Shown piece by piece: positions 26,346 to 31,864 of a stretch of 64,000 nt of DNA. The DNA is taken from the NCBI GenBank assembly GCA_964577145.1, contig CAZNXM010000006.1, forward strand, positions 878-64,877. The letters are read 5' to 3'. Each line of letters starts with the position of its first letter. Positions within the stretch are counted from its first letter, which is position 1. The translations under genes and the position numbers were made by a program. Under the pieces are notes generated by a model. That model ran no database searches and was not told the origin of the DNA. It saw only the letters and a program-made list of their open reading frames with translations. The stretch is from an uncultured Candidatus Poseidoniales archaeon. GTDB lineage: Archaea > Thermoplasmatota > Poseidoniia > Poseidoniales > Poseidoniaceae.

Positions 26346-26906
26346 TTGATTGGCCCCCCTATGGATGTAATATCTCACTGGCTATGGGGGATGGCCTTCA
26401 CAAGAAAAAAAGTATCTTGGAAAGTATCTGGGCCCATGGGTGTTTTACCTGACCTTATGGCATTCATCCCGGCTTCAATCGTAGGACTGATGCAAGGTCG
26501 AGATAGAGTTCATGTCGATGAAAACACGGTCACTTCGGACATGCACCCTATCGCTTGGGACATCTATCAGTGGTCGCATTCTCTATTCTTCGCCTTACTT
26601 ATTTTCCTTGGAGTTTGGTATGTCCTCCATAGAAGAGGTCATGAGACTCCGAGACTATTGGCATGGTACACAACCATACCCTGGATTGCACATATCATCG
26701 TCGATATACCAAGTCACACAATACAATTCTTCCCAACGCCATTCCTACATCCGTTTAGTGATTGGATGATTGATGGTACTAGTTGGGGAACGCCATGGGT
26801 TTGGTTCACCAATGTCGCACTATTGGCACTAACATGGGGTATTGTTCTGTGGAGAGAGCGCAATCAAAGCATGGATGAAATCGCAGATATTGAAGCTCTA
26901 GCATGA
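26346..26906 (+). CDS. Membrane-bound metal-dependent hydrolase-like protein (DUF457/YdjM-like)
   Basis: 186 aa; multi-TM with His-rich motifs (DVISHWLWG, HIIVDIPSH) as in the YdjM family; weak. Confidence 0.4.
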   Translation: MIGPPMDVISHWLWGMAFTRKKVSWKVSGPMGVLPDLMAFIPASIVGLMQGRDRVHVDENTVTSDMHPIAWDIYQWSHSLFFALLIFLGVWYVLHRRGHETPRLLAWYTTIPWIAHIIVDIPSHTIQFFPTPFLHPFSDWMIDGTSWGTPWVWFTNVALLALTWGIVLWRERNQSMDEIADIEALA

Positions 26907-27259
26907 GGTTCCAGACGAGGACCTATGTGTTCTGGCTCAGCACCGGGACCAATTATTCCCAAGCCAATTGGCTTGTCATGTACTAGTTGAAGTTCAATGA
27001 TGGCTTTGGTTACTACTTGGCCCATTACCAAACCATGTTGAGTTTGGCCACGCTCGATAATTCCAAGGCATGCTGCTCCGTCAATATCATCGCCTGAAAG
27101 TAAGCGGTCAAGTGCAAGTGGAACTTCCATTGCCCCTGGAACCCAAACAACTTCTACAACCTCAAGGCCTTCTTCATCGGCCTGCTGTTGAGCGAAAACT
27201 AACATGCGTTCTATCTCTGCTTTGTGAAAACTACCGCACACGATTGCGATTCGACTCAT
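26864..27259 (-). CDS. ribH: 6,7-dimethyl-8-ribityllumazine synthase (or archaeal lumazine-synthase-like riboflavin synthase)
   Basis: 131 aa; 'VVWVPGAMEVP…LGIIERGQTQH' lumazine-synthase core motifs; sits in the rib cluster. Confidence 0.7.
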   Translation of the reverse strand: MSRIAIVCGSFHKAEIERMLVFAQQQADEEGLEVVEVVWVPGAMEVPLALDRLLSGDDIDGAACLGIIERGQTQHGLVMGQVVTKAIIELQLVHDKPIGLGIIGPGAEPEHIGPRLEPHARASISAISSML

Positions 27260-27864
27260 GCCATTCCCTCCATGATCCTCTCTACTGTACTAACTACAGT
27301 CTGTGTCATCGTATCTACTTCGATGTTGACATTGCTACCCAATTGTTTGCCACCGATAGTTGTCAATCGCAGAGTTTCAGGAATAAGGTGCAGTGAAAAA
27401 CCACCCTCTTCGACATGACCAACGGTTAGAGAAATGCCATCTATGGCTACAAATCCCTTTGGCTGAATGAATCGAAGTATGTCATCTGGACAATCTATGA
27501 AAAGGTCTAGATGGTCTTCCCCACCATCTCGAGTGATTATTTCTCCCGTACCCATAATATGTCCAGAAAGAAGGTGACCTCCTAATTCATCTCCCATTTT
27601 CAGAGCGCGCTCGAGATTGACCCAATTGCCCTCAACTTTTTCACCGATTGTTGTTAGTTGAAGAGTTTCAGGAATTACATCAAAAGAAATTTCAGAACCA
27701 TTTATCCCCGCTACGGTTAAGCAAACTCCATCCACACAAACCGAGGCTCCTACTTCAAGTAAGTCGGTGCTAACTAGACTGAAATCAATTATGATTCTAA
27801 TCACTTCATCGCCTTCAGATGATACGATTCTACCCATTCCTGCAACAATTCCAGTGAACATCAA
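27256..27864 (-). CDS. ribE: Riboflavin synthase, eubacterial type (two lumazine-binding repeats)
   Basis: 202 aa; 'MFTGIV…GASVCVDGVCLTV' and 'GFVAIDGISLTVGHV' repeats match bacterial RibE. Confidence 0.85.
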   Translation of the reverse strand: MMFTGIVAGMGRIVSSEGDEVIRIIIDFSLVSTDLLEVGASVCVDGVCLTVAGINGSEISFDVIPETLQLTTIGEKVEGNWVNLERALKMGDELGGHLLSGHIMGTGEIITRDGGEDHLDLFIDCPDDILRFIQPKGFVAIDGISLTVGHVEEGGFSLHLIPETLRLTTIGGKQLGSNVNIEVDTMTQTVVSTVERIMEGMA

Positions 27865-28319
27865 ATCCCCTCCTCATCAAGGCGTTTTCTCGTCCCAGCT
27901 AAGTCAAGAATTCTAGCGATTATTTTACGAGTTCCATCGAGGTCATCAGATAGTCCTTCAACTCGAACCACCTTGATATGACCAAGACCTCGTTCTTCAA
28001 GTGAAGTTCTAATTCTTCCCTCGGCATGCTCTTGGTCATACCCGAGAGCAATTACATCAGGATTGACGCTCGGGAGAATATCGAAGATTGGTACGTCTGG
28101 CGAATTGCCAATAATTGCTTCATCAACTGGCTTGAGTCCCTCTACCATTCGACGTCGTAAGTCTTGCCCTGTCACTGGCTCATGCTTACGCTTTCGTACG
28201 GTATCGTCGTGTGCTACCACTACCGTCAAATGATTGCCCAGAGCCTTTGCCTGCTCCAAATAATGCAGATGTCCTGCGTGAAGAAGGTCGAATACTCCAA
28301 CTGCCATTACTCTGACCAT
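27861..28319 (-). CDS. ribL: Cytidylyltransferase-fold FMN adenylyltransferase (archaeal FAD synthetase RibL-like)
   Basis: 152 aa; 'VMAVGVFDLLHAGHLHYLEQAK' HxGH nucleotidyltransferase motif; located between ribE and ribB. Confidence 0.6.
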   Translation of the reverse strand: MVRVMAVGVFDLLHAGHLHYLEQAKALGNHLTVVVAHDDTVRKRKHEPVTGQDLRRRMVEGLKPVDEAIIGNSPDVPIFDILPSVNPDVIALGYDQEHAEGRIRTSLEERGLGHIKVVRVEGLSDDLDGTRKIIARILDLAGTRKRLDEEGI

Positions 28320-28357
28320 TTGCTTCTCCTCCGTGTTCCGGGATAGGGCTGACTCTC

Positions 28358-29056
28358 TTAGAGACCGAGGGCGGAAATCAATTCCTCTCCAGTCAAGAAT
28401 GGGATGTTTCTCTTATTCGCCCAAATACGGGCATCATCTACTGCAAGTGCTAGGTCGCCATCGGGTTGTAACATCTCTGCCCCAATCACAACTGGAGTCA
28501 ATCCAGCAAGGCGGGCTAGACCTACTGCCAATTCAGTATGGCCTTGTCGCTTGGATAGGCCGCCTTCGGATTCCCTGCAAACAGGTATGTGCCCAGGTGT
28601 GCGGAATTCAGCCCCGAGTGCCTCAAGTGGATTTACCCCGCTCTCATTTACTTCGGCAAACAATTCTGCGAACCTGCGCGTAGTTAGTGCTCGGTCATGA
28701 TCTGTTATTCCAGTGAATGTTTCACGATGATTTATCGAAAGGGTGAACGCACTACGAGTATCGTATTGTAGATCATCCGTTTGGAGATGGCGCAGCACTT
28801 CATGGTCTGCCATCAAACGTTCATCCATGTGCAAATCCTGCAGATAAGGAAGATCGAATAATTCACCAACTTCATGGCCGATAGCAAGGAAAAGTAAGCC
28901 GCCGCAATCAAAGCGAAGTTGGCGCATTGTGGAGGGTGTGGCGGCCTGACCCGGAAATAGCAGGTCGGTTTCCCCTTCCCTGTTCTCTGCATCGAAAAGA
29001 CACACTGGTTGACCTGCACGGAATGCGTCAACCGCGGCCCTGACATGAGGCTGCAT
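28358..29056 (-). CDS. ribB: 3,4-dihydroxy-2-butanone 4-phosphate synthase
   Basis: 'REGETDLLFPGQ' DHBP-synthase signature. The ORF opens at GTG 29095; ATG at 29056 (MQPHVRAAVDAF…) aligns with known RibB N-termini. Confidence 0.85.
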   Translation of the reverse strand: MQPHVRAAVDAFRAGQPVCLFDAENREGETDLLFPGQAATPSTMRQLRFDCGGLLFLAIGHEVGELFDLPYLQDLHMDERLMADHEVLRHLQTDDLQYDTRSAFTLSINHRETFTGITDHDRALTTRRFAELFAEVNESGVNPLEALGAEFRTPGHIPVCRESEGGLSKRQGHTELAVGLARLAGLTPVVIGAEMLQPDGDLALAVDDARIWANKRNIPFLTGEELISALGL

Positions 29057-29179
29057 GGACCCTCCGTTCTGGTTCTCTCTCATGAACCCACGCACGTCGA
29101 ATCGCGGTCATTTAGGAACGCTTGACGGAAAGGGGTTAACATAGGACACCCCTTCGGCCTGACCTGCGGGGATGGAATC

Positions 29180-30388
29180 ATGGGTGTCAAACTTGGACCG
29201 GCCGGAGTACCACTATCCTGTAAGGGTCGCACAATTGTAGAAGGAATGGACGATATTATCTCTCTCGGACTTGAAACAATGGAAGTCCAAACCGTGCGCA
29301 TGGTAGCACCTCAGCACTTCGAGCAGTACTGGCAAGCAGGAGTTCTTGCCAACAAAACTGATTTCGAAATGAATATCCATGGGCCATATTATTCGGAGTT
29401 ACTCGGTAATCGCCTTGAACGAAACCGTAGCCTCGCTAAAGTCGAAGCTGCACTACAGGCTGCGAAGACGATTAACGCACGCCATGTTACACTTCACGCT
29501 GGACATTATGGAGAGATGAATCGCGGACAAGAAGCAAATGAGCAGGTCGCAAGCGTGTTCAAAGGAATTGTTCAGAGAATCCATGACATATGGAATGATG
29601 ATGAAGATGAATACCCAGTATTCCCTTGGTTGAAAGAAGGAACCGCTTCAAAAATCGGAGTAGAAACCAGCGGTCGTCAGGAATTATGGGGTAGCCTCGA
29701 AGAAGTATTGGAGGTCGTCAATCATGTTGAAGGAACCATTCCTGTTCTCAATCTAGCTCATATTCACGCACGTGGCCATGGACGCTTGCGAACCTCGGAA
29801 GACTACGGCGAGTTGTTTGACCAAGTTCGTGAAACCATAGGGACCAAACAATTCTACTGCCATTTCTCCGGTATTGAGCACCGAATGGGTAATGCTCTTC
29901 ACTACACTCAAATCAAGAAATCCGATTTGAACTTTGAACCATTGGCTGAGTTCTTAATCGAAGATGGTGCTTGGCTTGATGTCACATTGATCTCCGATTC
30001 GCCACTACTAGAACACGATGCCATGTTTATGCTTCAGAATATCGAGCGAGCACGCCATCGGCAACTTGAGCGCAAGGCTAGGGAAGACCGCAGAAAGGCC
30101 CTCGCTGCACAAGCGAATATTACTCCTGAAGAAATGGAGGCTCGTGAGGCTCAAGTTTCAGCAGCACGTGCAAAGGATGCTCTTGCAAGAGCAGAAGCTG
30201 CTGTGGCTGAAACCAAGGCTGCAGAGAAAGCAGAGGTCGCACCTGATACCGAGGACAAACCTGAACCCGCTAAGAAAGCGGCTCCTAAGAAAAAAGCGGC
30301 TCCTAAGAAGAAAGCAGCGGCTAAGAAGAAGGAGGAGGACAACTCTGACCTCTTTGCCGTAGACGAAGAAGACGATGACCTCTTCTGA
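29180..30388 (+). CDS. Xylose-isomerase-like TIM-barrel protein (endonuclease IV / AP-endonuclease family 2-like) with a C-terminal histone-H1-like lysine/alanine-rich tail
   Basis: 402 aa; metal-ligand-like pattern (HAGHYG, GVETSG, NLAHIHARGHG, CHFSGIEH) resembling Nfo; tail of about 60 aa reads …KAAPKKKAAPKKKAAAKKKEEDNSDLFAVDEEDDDLF. Confidence 0.5.
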   Translation: MGVKLGPAGVPLSCKGRTIVEGMDDIISLGLETMEVQTVRMVAPQHFEQYWQAGVLANKTDFEMNIHGPYYSELLGNRLERNRSLAKVEAALQAAKTINARHVTLHAGHYGEMNRGQEANEQVASVFKGIVQRIHDIWNDDEDEYPVFPWLKEGTASKIGVETSGRQELWGSLEEVLEVVNHVEGTIPVLNLAHIHARGHGRLRTSEDYGELFDQVRETIGTKQFYCHFSGIEHRMGNALHYTQIKKSDLNFEPLAEFLIEDGAWLDVTLISDSPLLEHDAMFMLQNIERARHRQLERKAREDRRKALAAQANITPEEMEAREAQVSAARAKDALARAEAAVAETKAAEKAEVAPDTEDKPEPAKKAAPKKKAAPKKKAAAKKKEEDNSDLFAVDEEDDDLF

Positions 30389-30401
30389 AGCAACCCCTTC
30401 A

Positions 30402-31709
30402 TCAGCGGTTATCTTGTAGAATTAAGCGGCCACTACCTTGTCCTTTAGGACCACATGCCGGGCAACTATGCCAGATTCCATCTGAGCGTTGATACTTTGA
30501 TTTCTTACTGGTAATAAGTGAAGATACATCCTTACCGCAATCTGAGCACATCATTAGGAAATCAGGGTCTGAATCTGAACTCTCGAATTCTAATTCTAAC
30601 TCGATTTTGTCATTTTTAGATTGTGGGATTCGAACATTTCGACCACCCATTTGGCTCAAAATTGTAGAAACTCCAATTCCACCGAGCAGCGATGCACCGC
30701 CTACTGTGATTAAATCGGCTGTATCGCCACTACCCGTGATACTAACATCGTCTTCCGAACTGCTCACGCTGTTAACTGGCTCATCATTGTTGCACACAGG
30801 GCATATTGTAATACAACCTGAAGAATTTACTGAAGTTTCTGTAAATCTTTCATTTGAAGTTTTATTTGAAGTAAATGGCTCATAACAGATGTCATCAATA
30901 TTTCGAACACCATCACCATCATCATCTCCAAGTGCTTCACAAACGCTTGTACTCATCCTAGATGTTGTTGGACTATTATTGAAGTCAAATGGGTCAGCAC
31001 CACATGCGCTTTCCAATTTATCACTCCACCCATCTTTATCTGAATCTAGCATGAGTAACCCGGGTTTGACTTCATCTGGACATGAACTACCATATCTAAC
31101 GGATTCAGAAACTGCAGTATTCATCAATCGTGATAGTTCCTGGGATTGTGAATCGAAAATTGTGGCAGTAATCCAATAACATCCACTGCTTGAAGCGAGG
31201 CCAGTATTCATAATGAAACCATCACTTTGTATTGTATTTGGAAGAATTGACGAAGTGAATTCACTCTGACCGGACTCACCTGTGTTCACAATTATCCTGC
31301 CGCTAAATGAATCGGCCCCTCCAGCTAAAGATATGTCACTAAGCGCTACGATTGTATTATCGTGTTGAGAAGTATTTGTTGCATCGTTGGCGAGGATTCC
31401 GAACATCTGCCAATTGATCACAAATGTACGATTGAGTTCAAGACCTGATGCGCCGATAACTACCAGAAGACGCTCTGCCGGATAAGACAAATCATAGACT
31501 TGAGCATCTGAATCCCACATTATTGGACTTGTATCCTGTTGATCTTCTAGAATCCTTACTTCAAGATGGCCGTGGGTAGTCAAGTCGCCACCATGCGACT
31601 CGCGACTTACTGATTCTGGAGCAAGTTTTTCGACAGGTTGCTCGTCCAATAATAGTGCAATACTTGTTGTTAATAAACAACAAACCAACAAAACATGTGA
31701 GATTTTCAT
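30402..31709 (-). CDS. Secreted cysteine-rich protein with thrombospondin-type-3-like Ca-binding Asp repeats and a C-terminal CxxC…CxxC zinc-ribbon-like element
   Basis: Signal peptide MKISHVLLVCCLLTTSIALL (ATG 31709); 'DSDKDGWSD…DDDGDGVRNIDD' DxDxDG repeats; C-terminus 'CSDCGKD…HSCPACGPKG'. Confidence 0.55.
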   Translation of the reverse strand: MKISHVLLVCCLLTTSIALLLDEQPVEKLAPESVSRESHGGDLTTHGHLEVRILEDQQDTSPIMWDSDAQVYDLSYPAERLLVVIGASGLELNRTFVINWQMFGILANDATNTSQHDNTIVALSDISLAGGADSFSGRIIVNTGESGQSEFTSSILPNTIQSDGFIMNTGLASSSGCYWITATIFDSQSQELSRLMNTAVSESVRYGSSCPDEVKPGLLMLDSDKDGWSDKLESACGADPFDFNNSPTTSRMSTSVCEALGDDDGDGVRNIDDICYEPFTSNKTSNERFTETSVNSSGCITICPVCNNDEPVNSVSSSEDDVSITGSGDTADLITVGGASLLGGIGVSTILSQMGGRNVRIPQSKNDKIELELEFESSDSDPDFLMMCSDCGKDVSSLITSKKSKYQRSDGIWHSCPACGPKGQGSGRLILQDNR

Positions 31710-31864
31710 ATTTTCCCTCAATTTCGGGAGGGGGTTTTGGGCAATCAACCTTACCAAGGGAATTTCAATCAATGCTGTGCAATGTCATTCAACCCATTGA
31801 ACCCTACTTTGAGCACCTTGCACAAGGGAATCCCCTAAAGGGGATTGGTTAGCCACGAAGTAAC

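Follow-up and report, generated by a model that had tools for sequence, protein, structure and literature searches.

The stretch of DNA analysed here (64,000 nucleotides from an uncultured Candidatus Poseidoniales archaeon; hereafter, the window) carries a complete open reading frame (ORF) encoding a 402-amino-acid protein, with an endonuclease IV (Endo IV)-like TIM barrel at its N-terminus and a C-terminal extension that consists of a helical stalk, a disordered linker and a short acidic tip (Table 1). The protein is the Marine Group II (MGII) ortholog of an Endo IV-like paralog specific to Thermoplasmatota: five of the nine metal ligands of Endo IV are replaced by other, strictly conserved residues, and it is the stalk and the tip, rather than the lysine-rich patch between them, that are conserved in the extension. 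All of the motifs on which the first-pass annotation of this ORF had relied are present, both in the barrel – LHAGH (H106/H109), ETSG (E162), NLAHIHARGHG (N191/H194/H196/H200) and CHFS (H228) – and beyond it: the Ala/Glu-rich helix, the patch KKAAPKKKAAPKKKAAAKKK (residues 364–384) and the terminal EDNSDLFAVDEEDDDLF. The features go beyond chance. We retrieved 1394 homologues, the top 120 of which are Poseidoniales proteins of 366–417 amino acids with 75–96% identity, labelled as deoxyribonuclease-4 by the JGI annotation. Conservation within MGII refers throughout to an alignment of 121 orthologs.

As judged by both profile and structure comparisons, the nearest relatives of the barrel are Endo IV and APN1. 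The Pfam family AP_endonuc_2 (PF01261) matches residues 28–263 (E=2.7e-11; 44 bits vs a cut-off of 31), and the AlphaFold2 (AF2) model (mean pLDDT 89) folds residues 1–277 into an eight-stranded barrel, followed by two long helices (residues 278–311 and 316–352) and by disorder from approximately residue 353 onwards. A Foldseek search against the PDB returned Babesia APN1 and Escherichia coli endonuclease IV (Nfo) first (1QTW, 8RLY; TMt of 0.78–0.80, root-mean-square deviation of 3.2 Å), with MJ1311 (3WQO) and then sugar epimerases and UVDE at lower ranks. The family profile run against the PDB matched MJ1311 (1.5e-17) and Staphylococcus aureus Endo IV (2.8e-16), with epimerases at about 1e-5, and hhalign aligned the barrel to E. 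coli Nfo with 97% probability; the single 402-residue sequence, compared with PDB sequences, yielded only spurious low-complexity matches. The NCBIfam nfo model (TIGR00587) also matches, at 19.3 bits and below its cut-off of 129.65, as is the case for 48 of 53 family members. Because of the Foldseek, family-profile and nfo-model matches, the label ‘Endo IV-like’, which the first-pass annotation had also applied, is correct at the level of fold and superfamily.

With Nfo and yeast Apn1 (PF01261; PDB 1QTW, 8RLY and 10NH) the window protein shares the TIM-barrel fold, the HxxY motif and the residues equivalent to Nfo H69, H109, E145 and H182; it differs in the five replaced metal ligands, in a Glu at the position of N75 and in the acidity of its barrel, and Nfo has neither the stalk nor the linker nor the acidic tip. 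A basic C-terminal extension is said to have been described on yeast Apn1 too, by Ramotar and colleagues in 1993. MJ1311 of Methanocaldococcus jannaschii (3WQO) and PF1383 of Pyrococcus furiosus are likewise archaeal Endo IV-like barrels with a partial ligand set, but they are distant (about 17% identity), tail-less and carry another conserved signature; PF1383 has no apurinic/apyrimidinic (AP) endonuclease activity (PMC2770678).

The first-pass annotation had seen an Nfo metal-ligand pattern in the barrel. The pattern is incomplete: the alignment-based mapping to E. coli Nfo (hmmalign, hhalign; Table 1) retains only four of the nine ligands, and the nfo score is low (19 bits vs a cut-off of 130). 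The replacements N191, Y226, A239, Y242 and D273 are invariant in the MGII orthologs, and so is H241. Among the DNA-recognition positions, Y70 (the wedge residue Y72 of Nfo) is conserved, N75 is replaced by E73 (by Asp in sister lineages) and R230 by H241. Judging from these substitutions, metal site 1 (His-His-Glu: H67/H106/E162) appears to be intact, and sites 2 and 3 appear to have been largely rebuilt. A set of polar residues on the catalytic face is 100% invariant in MGII and in most of the wider clade: H67, H106, E162, H194, H196, R198, H228, K246, K247, E278, H279 and D280. D280 is invariant family-wide and H279 in the divergent clade only (see below), making H279 a candidate replacement ligand. 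A few outlying clade members (P0196, P0209, P0221 and P0266) additionally lose H106, E162, H194 or H228.

We searched 1.84 billion cluster representatives exhaustively (675 clusters at E<1e-3) and tabulated the residues in the ligand columns. The tabulation splits the family into full-ligand, tail-less members and ligand-changed members with C-terminal extensions. The former, canonical group (approximately 265–290 amino acids, with at most about 20 residues past the barrel) has H67, H106, E162, D191, H194, H226, H228, E239, H242 and E273 as invariants, and its source names include Thermococci (‘endonuclease IV’), Thermoprotei, Nitrososphaerota, Micrarchaeota, Aenigmatarchaeota, Thermoplasmatales, Thermoplasmata and Thermoplasmatota. 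The latter, divergent group, which includes the window protein, has the N191 and Y226 signature with variable positions 242 and 273, and a K/R-rich C-terminal extension is present on almost every member that the family-wide search returned for it. The window protein shows the full divergent signature (G[IV]PLSCKGRT … N191 … Y226-x-H-F-S-G … [PQ]IKK[GS]D … SPLLEHDA[MQ][YF]M, then a post-barrel basic helix), and its N191 and Y226, together with its 122-residue extension, set it apart from the canonical subfamily. The canonical archaeal Endo IV (about 270 amino acids, ‘FGPAGxP…HxHFT…ESP’) is 30–37% identical to it across the whole barrel and shares the family-specific invariants E35, Y70, Y110, R198 and D280, but has all nine ligand positions, no tail and unrelated gene contexts.

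Two characterised archaeal enzymes probably represent the canonical type. P. furiosus has two Endo IV-like genes; the product of one, PF0258, is active as an AP endonuclease and interacts with PCNA although no PIP (PCNA-interacting peptide) box can be recognised in it (PMC2770678); we place PF0258 in the canonical subfamily because of its residue numbering and its low identity to Nfo. The Thermococcus eurythermalis EndoIV depends on H70, Y73, N76, H110, R231 and H232 (PMC6341776), a pattern that fits the canonical subfamily.

The divergent group is more than the canonical group minus its ligands. About 25 polar or aromatic positions are 85–100% conserved in both MGII and non-MGII divergent members and not in the canonical group, for example S13-C14-K15-x-R17-T18, D25, Y71, N191, Y226, N238, T243, K246-K247, D249, E278-H279 and Y283. 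Because these invariant polar residues are clade-specific, the pattern argues for new selection rather than decay, that is, for neo-functionalisation and not relaxed selection. A scan with a profile of the clade found it in at least 582 species genomes; many of the records carry only generic names such as ‘Methanobacteriota archaeon’, and all of the informatively named ones are Thermoplasmatota, including, among the matches listed, Thermoplasmata, Methanomassiliicoccales, Methanomethylophilaceae, DHVE2 and Sysuiplasma. An architecture that the first-pass annotation had considered unusual for archaea is thus not unusual within Thermoplasmatota. Our literature searches turned up no publication that deals with the divergent clade, its tails or the gene coupling described below. 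Non-MGII members (e.g. P0132, P0137 and P0356) also have an insertion of about 55 residues between barrel strand 2 and helix 2 (residues ~40–100; pattern …VRVNxxER…E.G..P.E…IV.V.R…), which neither MGII nor the canonical subfamily has.

The C-terminal extension of the MGII orthologs combines conserved and drifting parts. The stalk is net-basic (+2 to +7), and its first helix reads ERVLTRREAKA... clade-wide. The linker varies in length (29–62 residues) and in net charge (−14 to +12, negative in 30 of the 121 orthologs), its columns are only 25–60% conserved, and in some orthologs it consists of EEVVEEKTAEPE repeats in place of KAAP. The complete tail of the window protein has a net charge of 0 and the protein itself one of about −17, and the MGII proteins are strongly acidic overall (about −17 to −20). 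Because the linker drifts, the KAAP patch is encoded by a tandem repeat and the net charge of the tail is zero, a ‘histone-H1-like tail’ is not a conserved feature of the MGII ortholog group. The DNA-binding KAAP tail of the first-pass annotation reduces to a repeat particular to this lineage, which many orthologs lack or replace by acidic sequence; what the orthologs do keep is the basic stalk and the acidic tip. The comparison with the K-, A- and P-rich tails of histone H1, Chlamydia Hc1-Hc2 and AlgP applies better to the sister Thermoplasmatota orthologs, with tails of 80–240 residues and 40–55% K/R, than to the window protein, with its unconserved 21-residue patch. On the opposite strand (window positions 30151–30402), an 83-residue ORF (…AAFFLGAAFFLGAAFL…) is a shadow of the coding-strand KAAP and acidic repeats and not a gene.

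All 121 orthologs have [LI]F as their last two residues, and in 117 of them the acidic-aromatic tip (net charge −8 to −11) bears the double motif DD[LV]F-x2-3-acidic-DDD[LI]F. In two AF2 runs (with three MGII sequences and with an MGII-rich multiple sequence alignment of 87) residues ~350–402 have pLDDT below 50 and the tip is disordered and undocked, as would be expected of a short linear motif with a binding partner in trans; the models speak neither for nor against a fuzzy intramolecular contact with the basic stalk. Acidic, Phe-terminated tails are known from T7 gp2.5 and from bacterial single-stranded DNA-binding protein (SSB; DDDIPF), where they bind to polymerases, helicases and repair enzymes and also imitate DNA in the binding cleft of their own protein. 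Like these tails, the MGII tip follows a disordered linker, and its acidic run is closed by a hydrophobic residue and a C-terminal Phe; it differs in that the motif is duplicated and sits on an archaeal enzyme-like TIM barrel and not on an OB-fold SSB. Scanning viral contigs for [DE]3-DD-[LF]-F-stop, we found 52 stretches, mostly at real ORF ends; endings of this type occur in gp2.5-like ssDNA-binding proteins (phrog_112; 3 of 10 tested), a RecT-like annealing protein and a portal protein, and those of the gp2.5-like and RecT-like proteins (…DDDLF) are exactly like the MGII tip. By analogy, the MGII tip would be a device of the SSB-Ct/gp2.5 kind, carried by an enzyme instead of an SSB. The suggestion that the terminal DLF motifs form a partner-docking tail thus holds insofar as they constitute a conserved SSB-Ct/gp2.5-type short motif, and fails for the PIP-like variant: we rejected a PIP box (Q-x-x-[LIM]-x-x-[FY]-[FYW]), as there is no Gln-anchored motif with two adjacent aromatics. 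We also rejected an HbYX motif, as there is no penultimate Tyr.

Elsewhere in the clade, other C-terminal modules are found on the same barrel. Most of the 114 non-MGII matches to the clade profile have tails of 80–240 residues with 40–55% K/R that end in KKKK or KKKR, one of which matches Pfam HC2 at 30 bits (under the cut-off of 40), and about one third have only a basic helix of ~25–35 residues. In P0121 (472 amino acids), a 75%-identical ortholog with the same acidic DLF tip, two SAP domains separate the basic stalk from that tip (E=9.4e-19), and P0199 carries C2H2 fingers. Acidic-aromatic tips, e.g. …DDDDLEDDYD, recur on P0356, P0366, P0367 and P0379, one of which is encoded by a Methanomassiliicoccales chromosome. 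Thus, while the KAAP patch itself is not conserved, nucleic-acid-binding extensions of the kind that the first-pass annotation had envisaged are recurrent in the clade. K/R-rich tails are not a proteome-wide habit of these genomes: none of 742 conserved neighbour proteins has one, and the trait is therefore specific to the Endo IV-like protein. That DNA-binding modules were acquired repeatedly and independently is the best argument for an action of the clade on or near nucleic acid. Finally, P0165 (441 amino acids) carries a fused homolog of Thermoplasma acidophilum Ta0095 (DUF5611; NMR structure PDB 2JOI), a domain that may be a functional partner of the barrel in Thermoplasmatales; literature searches on Ta0095, on 6-phospho-3-hexuloisomerase together with Endo IV, and on lysine-rich tails of Thermoplasmatota returned nothing relevant.

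The explanation that we favour, tentatively and with somewhat less than even confidence, is that the window protein is a neo-functionalised archaeal Endo IV paralog, metal-dependent and acting on a phosphorylated sugar or phosphodiester, with a tether that ends in a docking tip. The barrel would keep one His-His-Glu metal site (H67/H106/E162) plus H194 and H228; Endo IV metal sites 2 and 3 would have been rebuilt as N191, Y226, A239, Y242 and D273, and new invariants – S-C-K-x-R-T at residues 13–18, K246-K247 and H279 – would have arisen. We infer that the protein is still a metal-dependent enzyme whose phosphorylated sugar or phosphodiester most likely lies in nucleic acid, and that it is not a classical three-metal AP endonuclease. 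The tether would combine the conserved basic helical stalk, a disordered spacer and the strictly conserved acidic Phe-ending tip: sequence and charge of the spacer would be free to drift, the KAAP patch in the window being a recent slippage repeat, and the tip may serve as an SSB-Ct/T7-gp2.5-type linear motif that docks into a basic pocket of a partner, for example a hub of replication, repair or chromatin. Alternatively, the tip may transiently mask the protein’s own basic stalk.

Several observations weigh against this explanation. With five of the nine Nfo ligands altered, and the equivalent of N75 as well, Endo IV-type DNA cleavage is doubtful. The barrel is acidic, with a median net charge of −18 in MGII and −11.5 in non-MGII divergent members, as compared to −3.5 in the canonical group. 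Among GTDB species representatives, tails of 60 residues or more are found in just 18 of 80, and most have only a basic helix of 25–45 residues. Neither AF2 run yields a confident intramolecular docking of the tip. Lastly, in the 80 non-MGII Thermoplasmatota loci that we used for context counts (L002–L081; 73 with enough downstream DNA), the gene directly downstream on the same strand encodes 6-phospho-3-hexuloisomerase (hxlB, PHI) in 61 cases (i.e. 61 of 73), which points towards sugar-phosphate metabolism.

This gene coupling speaks for an alternative that we consider unlikely, if worth taking seriously: that the protein is a sugar-phosphate enzyme, e.g. one that partners hexulose-6-phosphate synthase (HPS), or replaces it without being its ortholog, and works with PHI in the ribulose-monophosphate route, and that the tails are incidental. 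In 44 of the 61 PHI loci the two genes overlap by a 4-nucleotide stop/start (ATGA/GTGA), the downstream 180-residue SIS protein passes the equivalog model TIGR03127 (162.3 bits vs a cut-off of 160), P0192 and P0211 are barrel–SIS read-through or fusion fragments, and the Endo IV-like gene sits at the HPS position of HPS–PHI fusions; a canonical Thermoplasmatales copy stands alone, with no PHI. Furthermore, the superfamily is rich in sugar-phosphate epimerases and isomerases, a mononuclear His-His-Glu site with new Lys/Arg residues would suit a phosphosugar, and the barrel is acidic. However, the E-D-H-E single-metal tetrad of the sugar 3-epimerases is broken too: the corresponding positions hold E162, N191, Y226/H228 and D273 (Gly, Ser or Asp at 273 across the clade), and epimerase matches are much weaker than those to Endo IV (1e-5 vs 1e-16). 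Fusions to SAP domains, C2H2 fingers and long polycationic tails are hard to square with a soluble metabolic enzyme, and we found no PHI homolog in the 64-kb window or on the syntenic MGII contigs.

Quite improbable, in our view, is that the barrel is a catalytically dead pseudo-enzyme, which would only bind a lesion or ligand, or act as a scaffold, within a protein associated with the nucleoid or the ribosome. The lost metal ligands (in P0196, P0209, P0221 and P0266 including residues of the retained set), the acquired basic tails, the ribosomal protein genes L18e, L13 and S9 that lie upstream on the other strand in non-MGII loci, and the precedent of the inactive PF1383 (PMC2770678) all speak for such a role, but the large invariant polar set on the catalytic face is typical of an active site, and N191 and Y226 are fixed and not drifting.

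A further reading makes the protein a bona fide Endo IV-type AP endonuclease/3'-diesterase that is held on the nucleoid by an H1-like tail and recruited to the clamp or SSB by its DLF motifs. In favour of it, Endo IV/APN1 are closest in fold and profile, the JGI label agrees, conservation extends to Y70, H67, H106, E162 and H194, loss of a ligand is tolerated by the fold, as some activity remains in each of the single mutants H70A, H110A and E261A of the P. furiosus enzyme (PMC2770678), and MGII might depend on the divergent copy because we found no canonical paralog explicitly assigned to Poseidoniales (source names read only Thermoplasmatota, Thermoplasmatales or Thermoplasmata), yet with four of nine ligands, an essentially absent Zn3 site, Glu in place of N75, an nfo score far below cut-off, an unconserved KAAP patch and a strongly negative protein we regard this reading as improbable.

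We give equally little credence to a more ambitious version of the neo-functionalised paralog, in which the clade would be a Thermoplasmatota-wide enzyme for sugar-phosphate lesions in nucleic acid (AP sites, 5'-deoxyribose phosphate ends) with an exchanged metal centre and a PHI-like SIS partner, and in which, in MGII, an SSB-Ct/gp2.5-like hook for a replication, RPA or histone hub would replace the polycationic tether.

The distinction between the two subfamilies matters for annotation. Automatic pipelines name the protein ‘deoxyribonuclease IV’ and metabolic reconstructions of the abundant marine MGII archaea accept this at face value; our evidence instead indicates a distinct paralog, strongly conserved and with a rebuilt active site, so that Thermoplasmatota may have been credited wrongly with base-excision-repair capacity. 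The clade also offers a natural experiment, with one catalytic scaffold and interchangeable targeting modules (polycationic tail, SAP, zinc fingers, acidic hook), and its tight coupling to PHI ties a DNA-repair-type fold to sugar-phosphate metabolism.

Table 1. Features of the Endo IV-like protein and of its surroundings. Positions are those of the window; residue numbers are those of the window protein unless preceded by Nfo (E. coli).
Feature	Position	Strand	Remarks
Complete ORF, 402 aa + stop, ATG start	29180..30388	+	MGII (Poseidoniaceae) ortholog of the Thermoplasmatota-specific Endo IV-like paralog
Xylose-isomerase-like/Endo IV-like TIM barrel, aa 1–277	29180..30010	+	Pfam; AF2 pLDDT mostly >90; Foldseek; hmmalign/hhalign to E. 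coli Nfo; conservation
Clade-specific invariant loop S13-C14-K15-G-R17-T18	29216..29233	+	Conservation; part of the divergent-clade signature
E278-H279-D280 of the SPLLEHDA motif	30011..30019	+	Conservation
Net-basic helical stalk, aa 283–335 (..NIERARHRQLERKAREDRRKALAAQ..ARAKDAL)	30026..30184	+	Conserved; 121-ortholog alignment, AF2
Variable disordered low-complexity linker, aa 336–385	30185..30334	+	Alignment, AF2
18-nt tandem repeat, 3.3 copies, encoding the KKAAPKKK ‘H1-like’ patch	30272..30330	+	Not conserved among orthologs
Acidic-aromatic tip EDNSDLFAVDEEDDDLF	30335..30385	+	Conserved (121 orthologs), predicted disordered
Nfo H69 → H67			Kept
Nfo H109 → H106			Kept
Nfo E145 → E162			Kept
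Nfo D179 → N191
Nfo H182 → H194			Kept
Nfo H216 → Y226
Nfo D229 → A239
Nfo H231 → Y242
Nfo E261 → D273			Approximate
Riboflavin/FAD cluster: DMRL synthase, riboflavin synthase (Lum_binding), cytidylyltransferase-like (probably RibL), DHBP synthase	26864-29095	-	Divergent from the Endo IV-like gene
456-aa ORF	30402-31772	-	No Pfam match; between the Endo IV-like gene and gpsA
Very large ORF, 2167 aa	44893-51396	-
Very large ORF, 1373 aa	52202-56323	-
Very large ORF, 1347 aa	8983-13026	+

The gene neighbourhood is conserved in MGII and differs from that of the non-MGII loci: ribB-ribL-ribE-ribH lie divergently upstream, with the synteny of this riboflavin/FAD cluster kept in MGII contigs, and gpsA lies downstream. 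In a 93%-identical relative (L082/L083) gpsA follows directly after an 85-nucleotide gap, and the 456-residue ORF is an insertion in the window; its product combines a hydrophobic segment at the N-terminus with Asp-rich DxDxDG-type repeats and a C-terminal CxxC…CxxC. In 35–46 of the 80 non-MGII loci, genes for a JAB/MPN protease, an E2-like UQ_con protein and a ThiF-like E1 lie about 0.6–2 kb downstream on the opposite strand, and look like an archaeal ubiquitin-like modification cassette beside the Endo IV-like/PHI pair. The three very large ORFs of the window, one with a match to FG-GAP repeats only and the other two without a Pfam match, probably encode large surface proteins.

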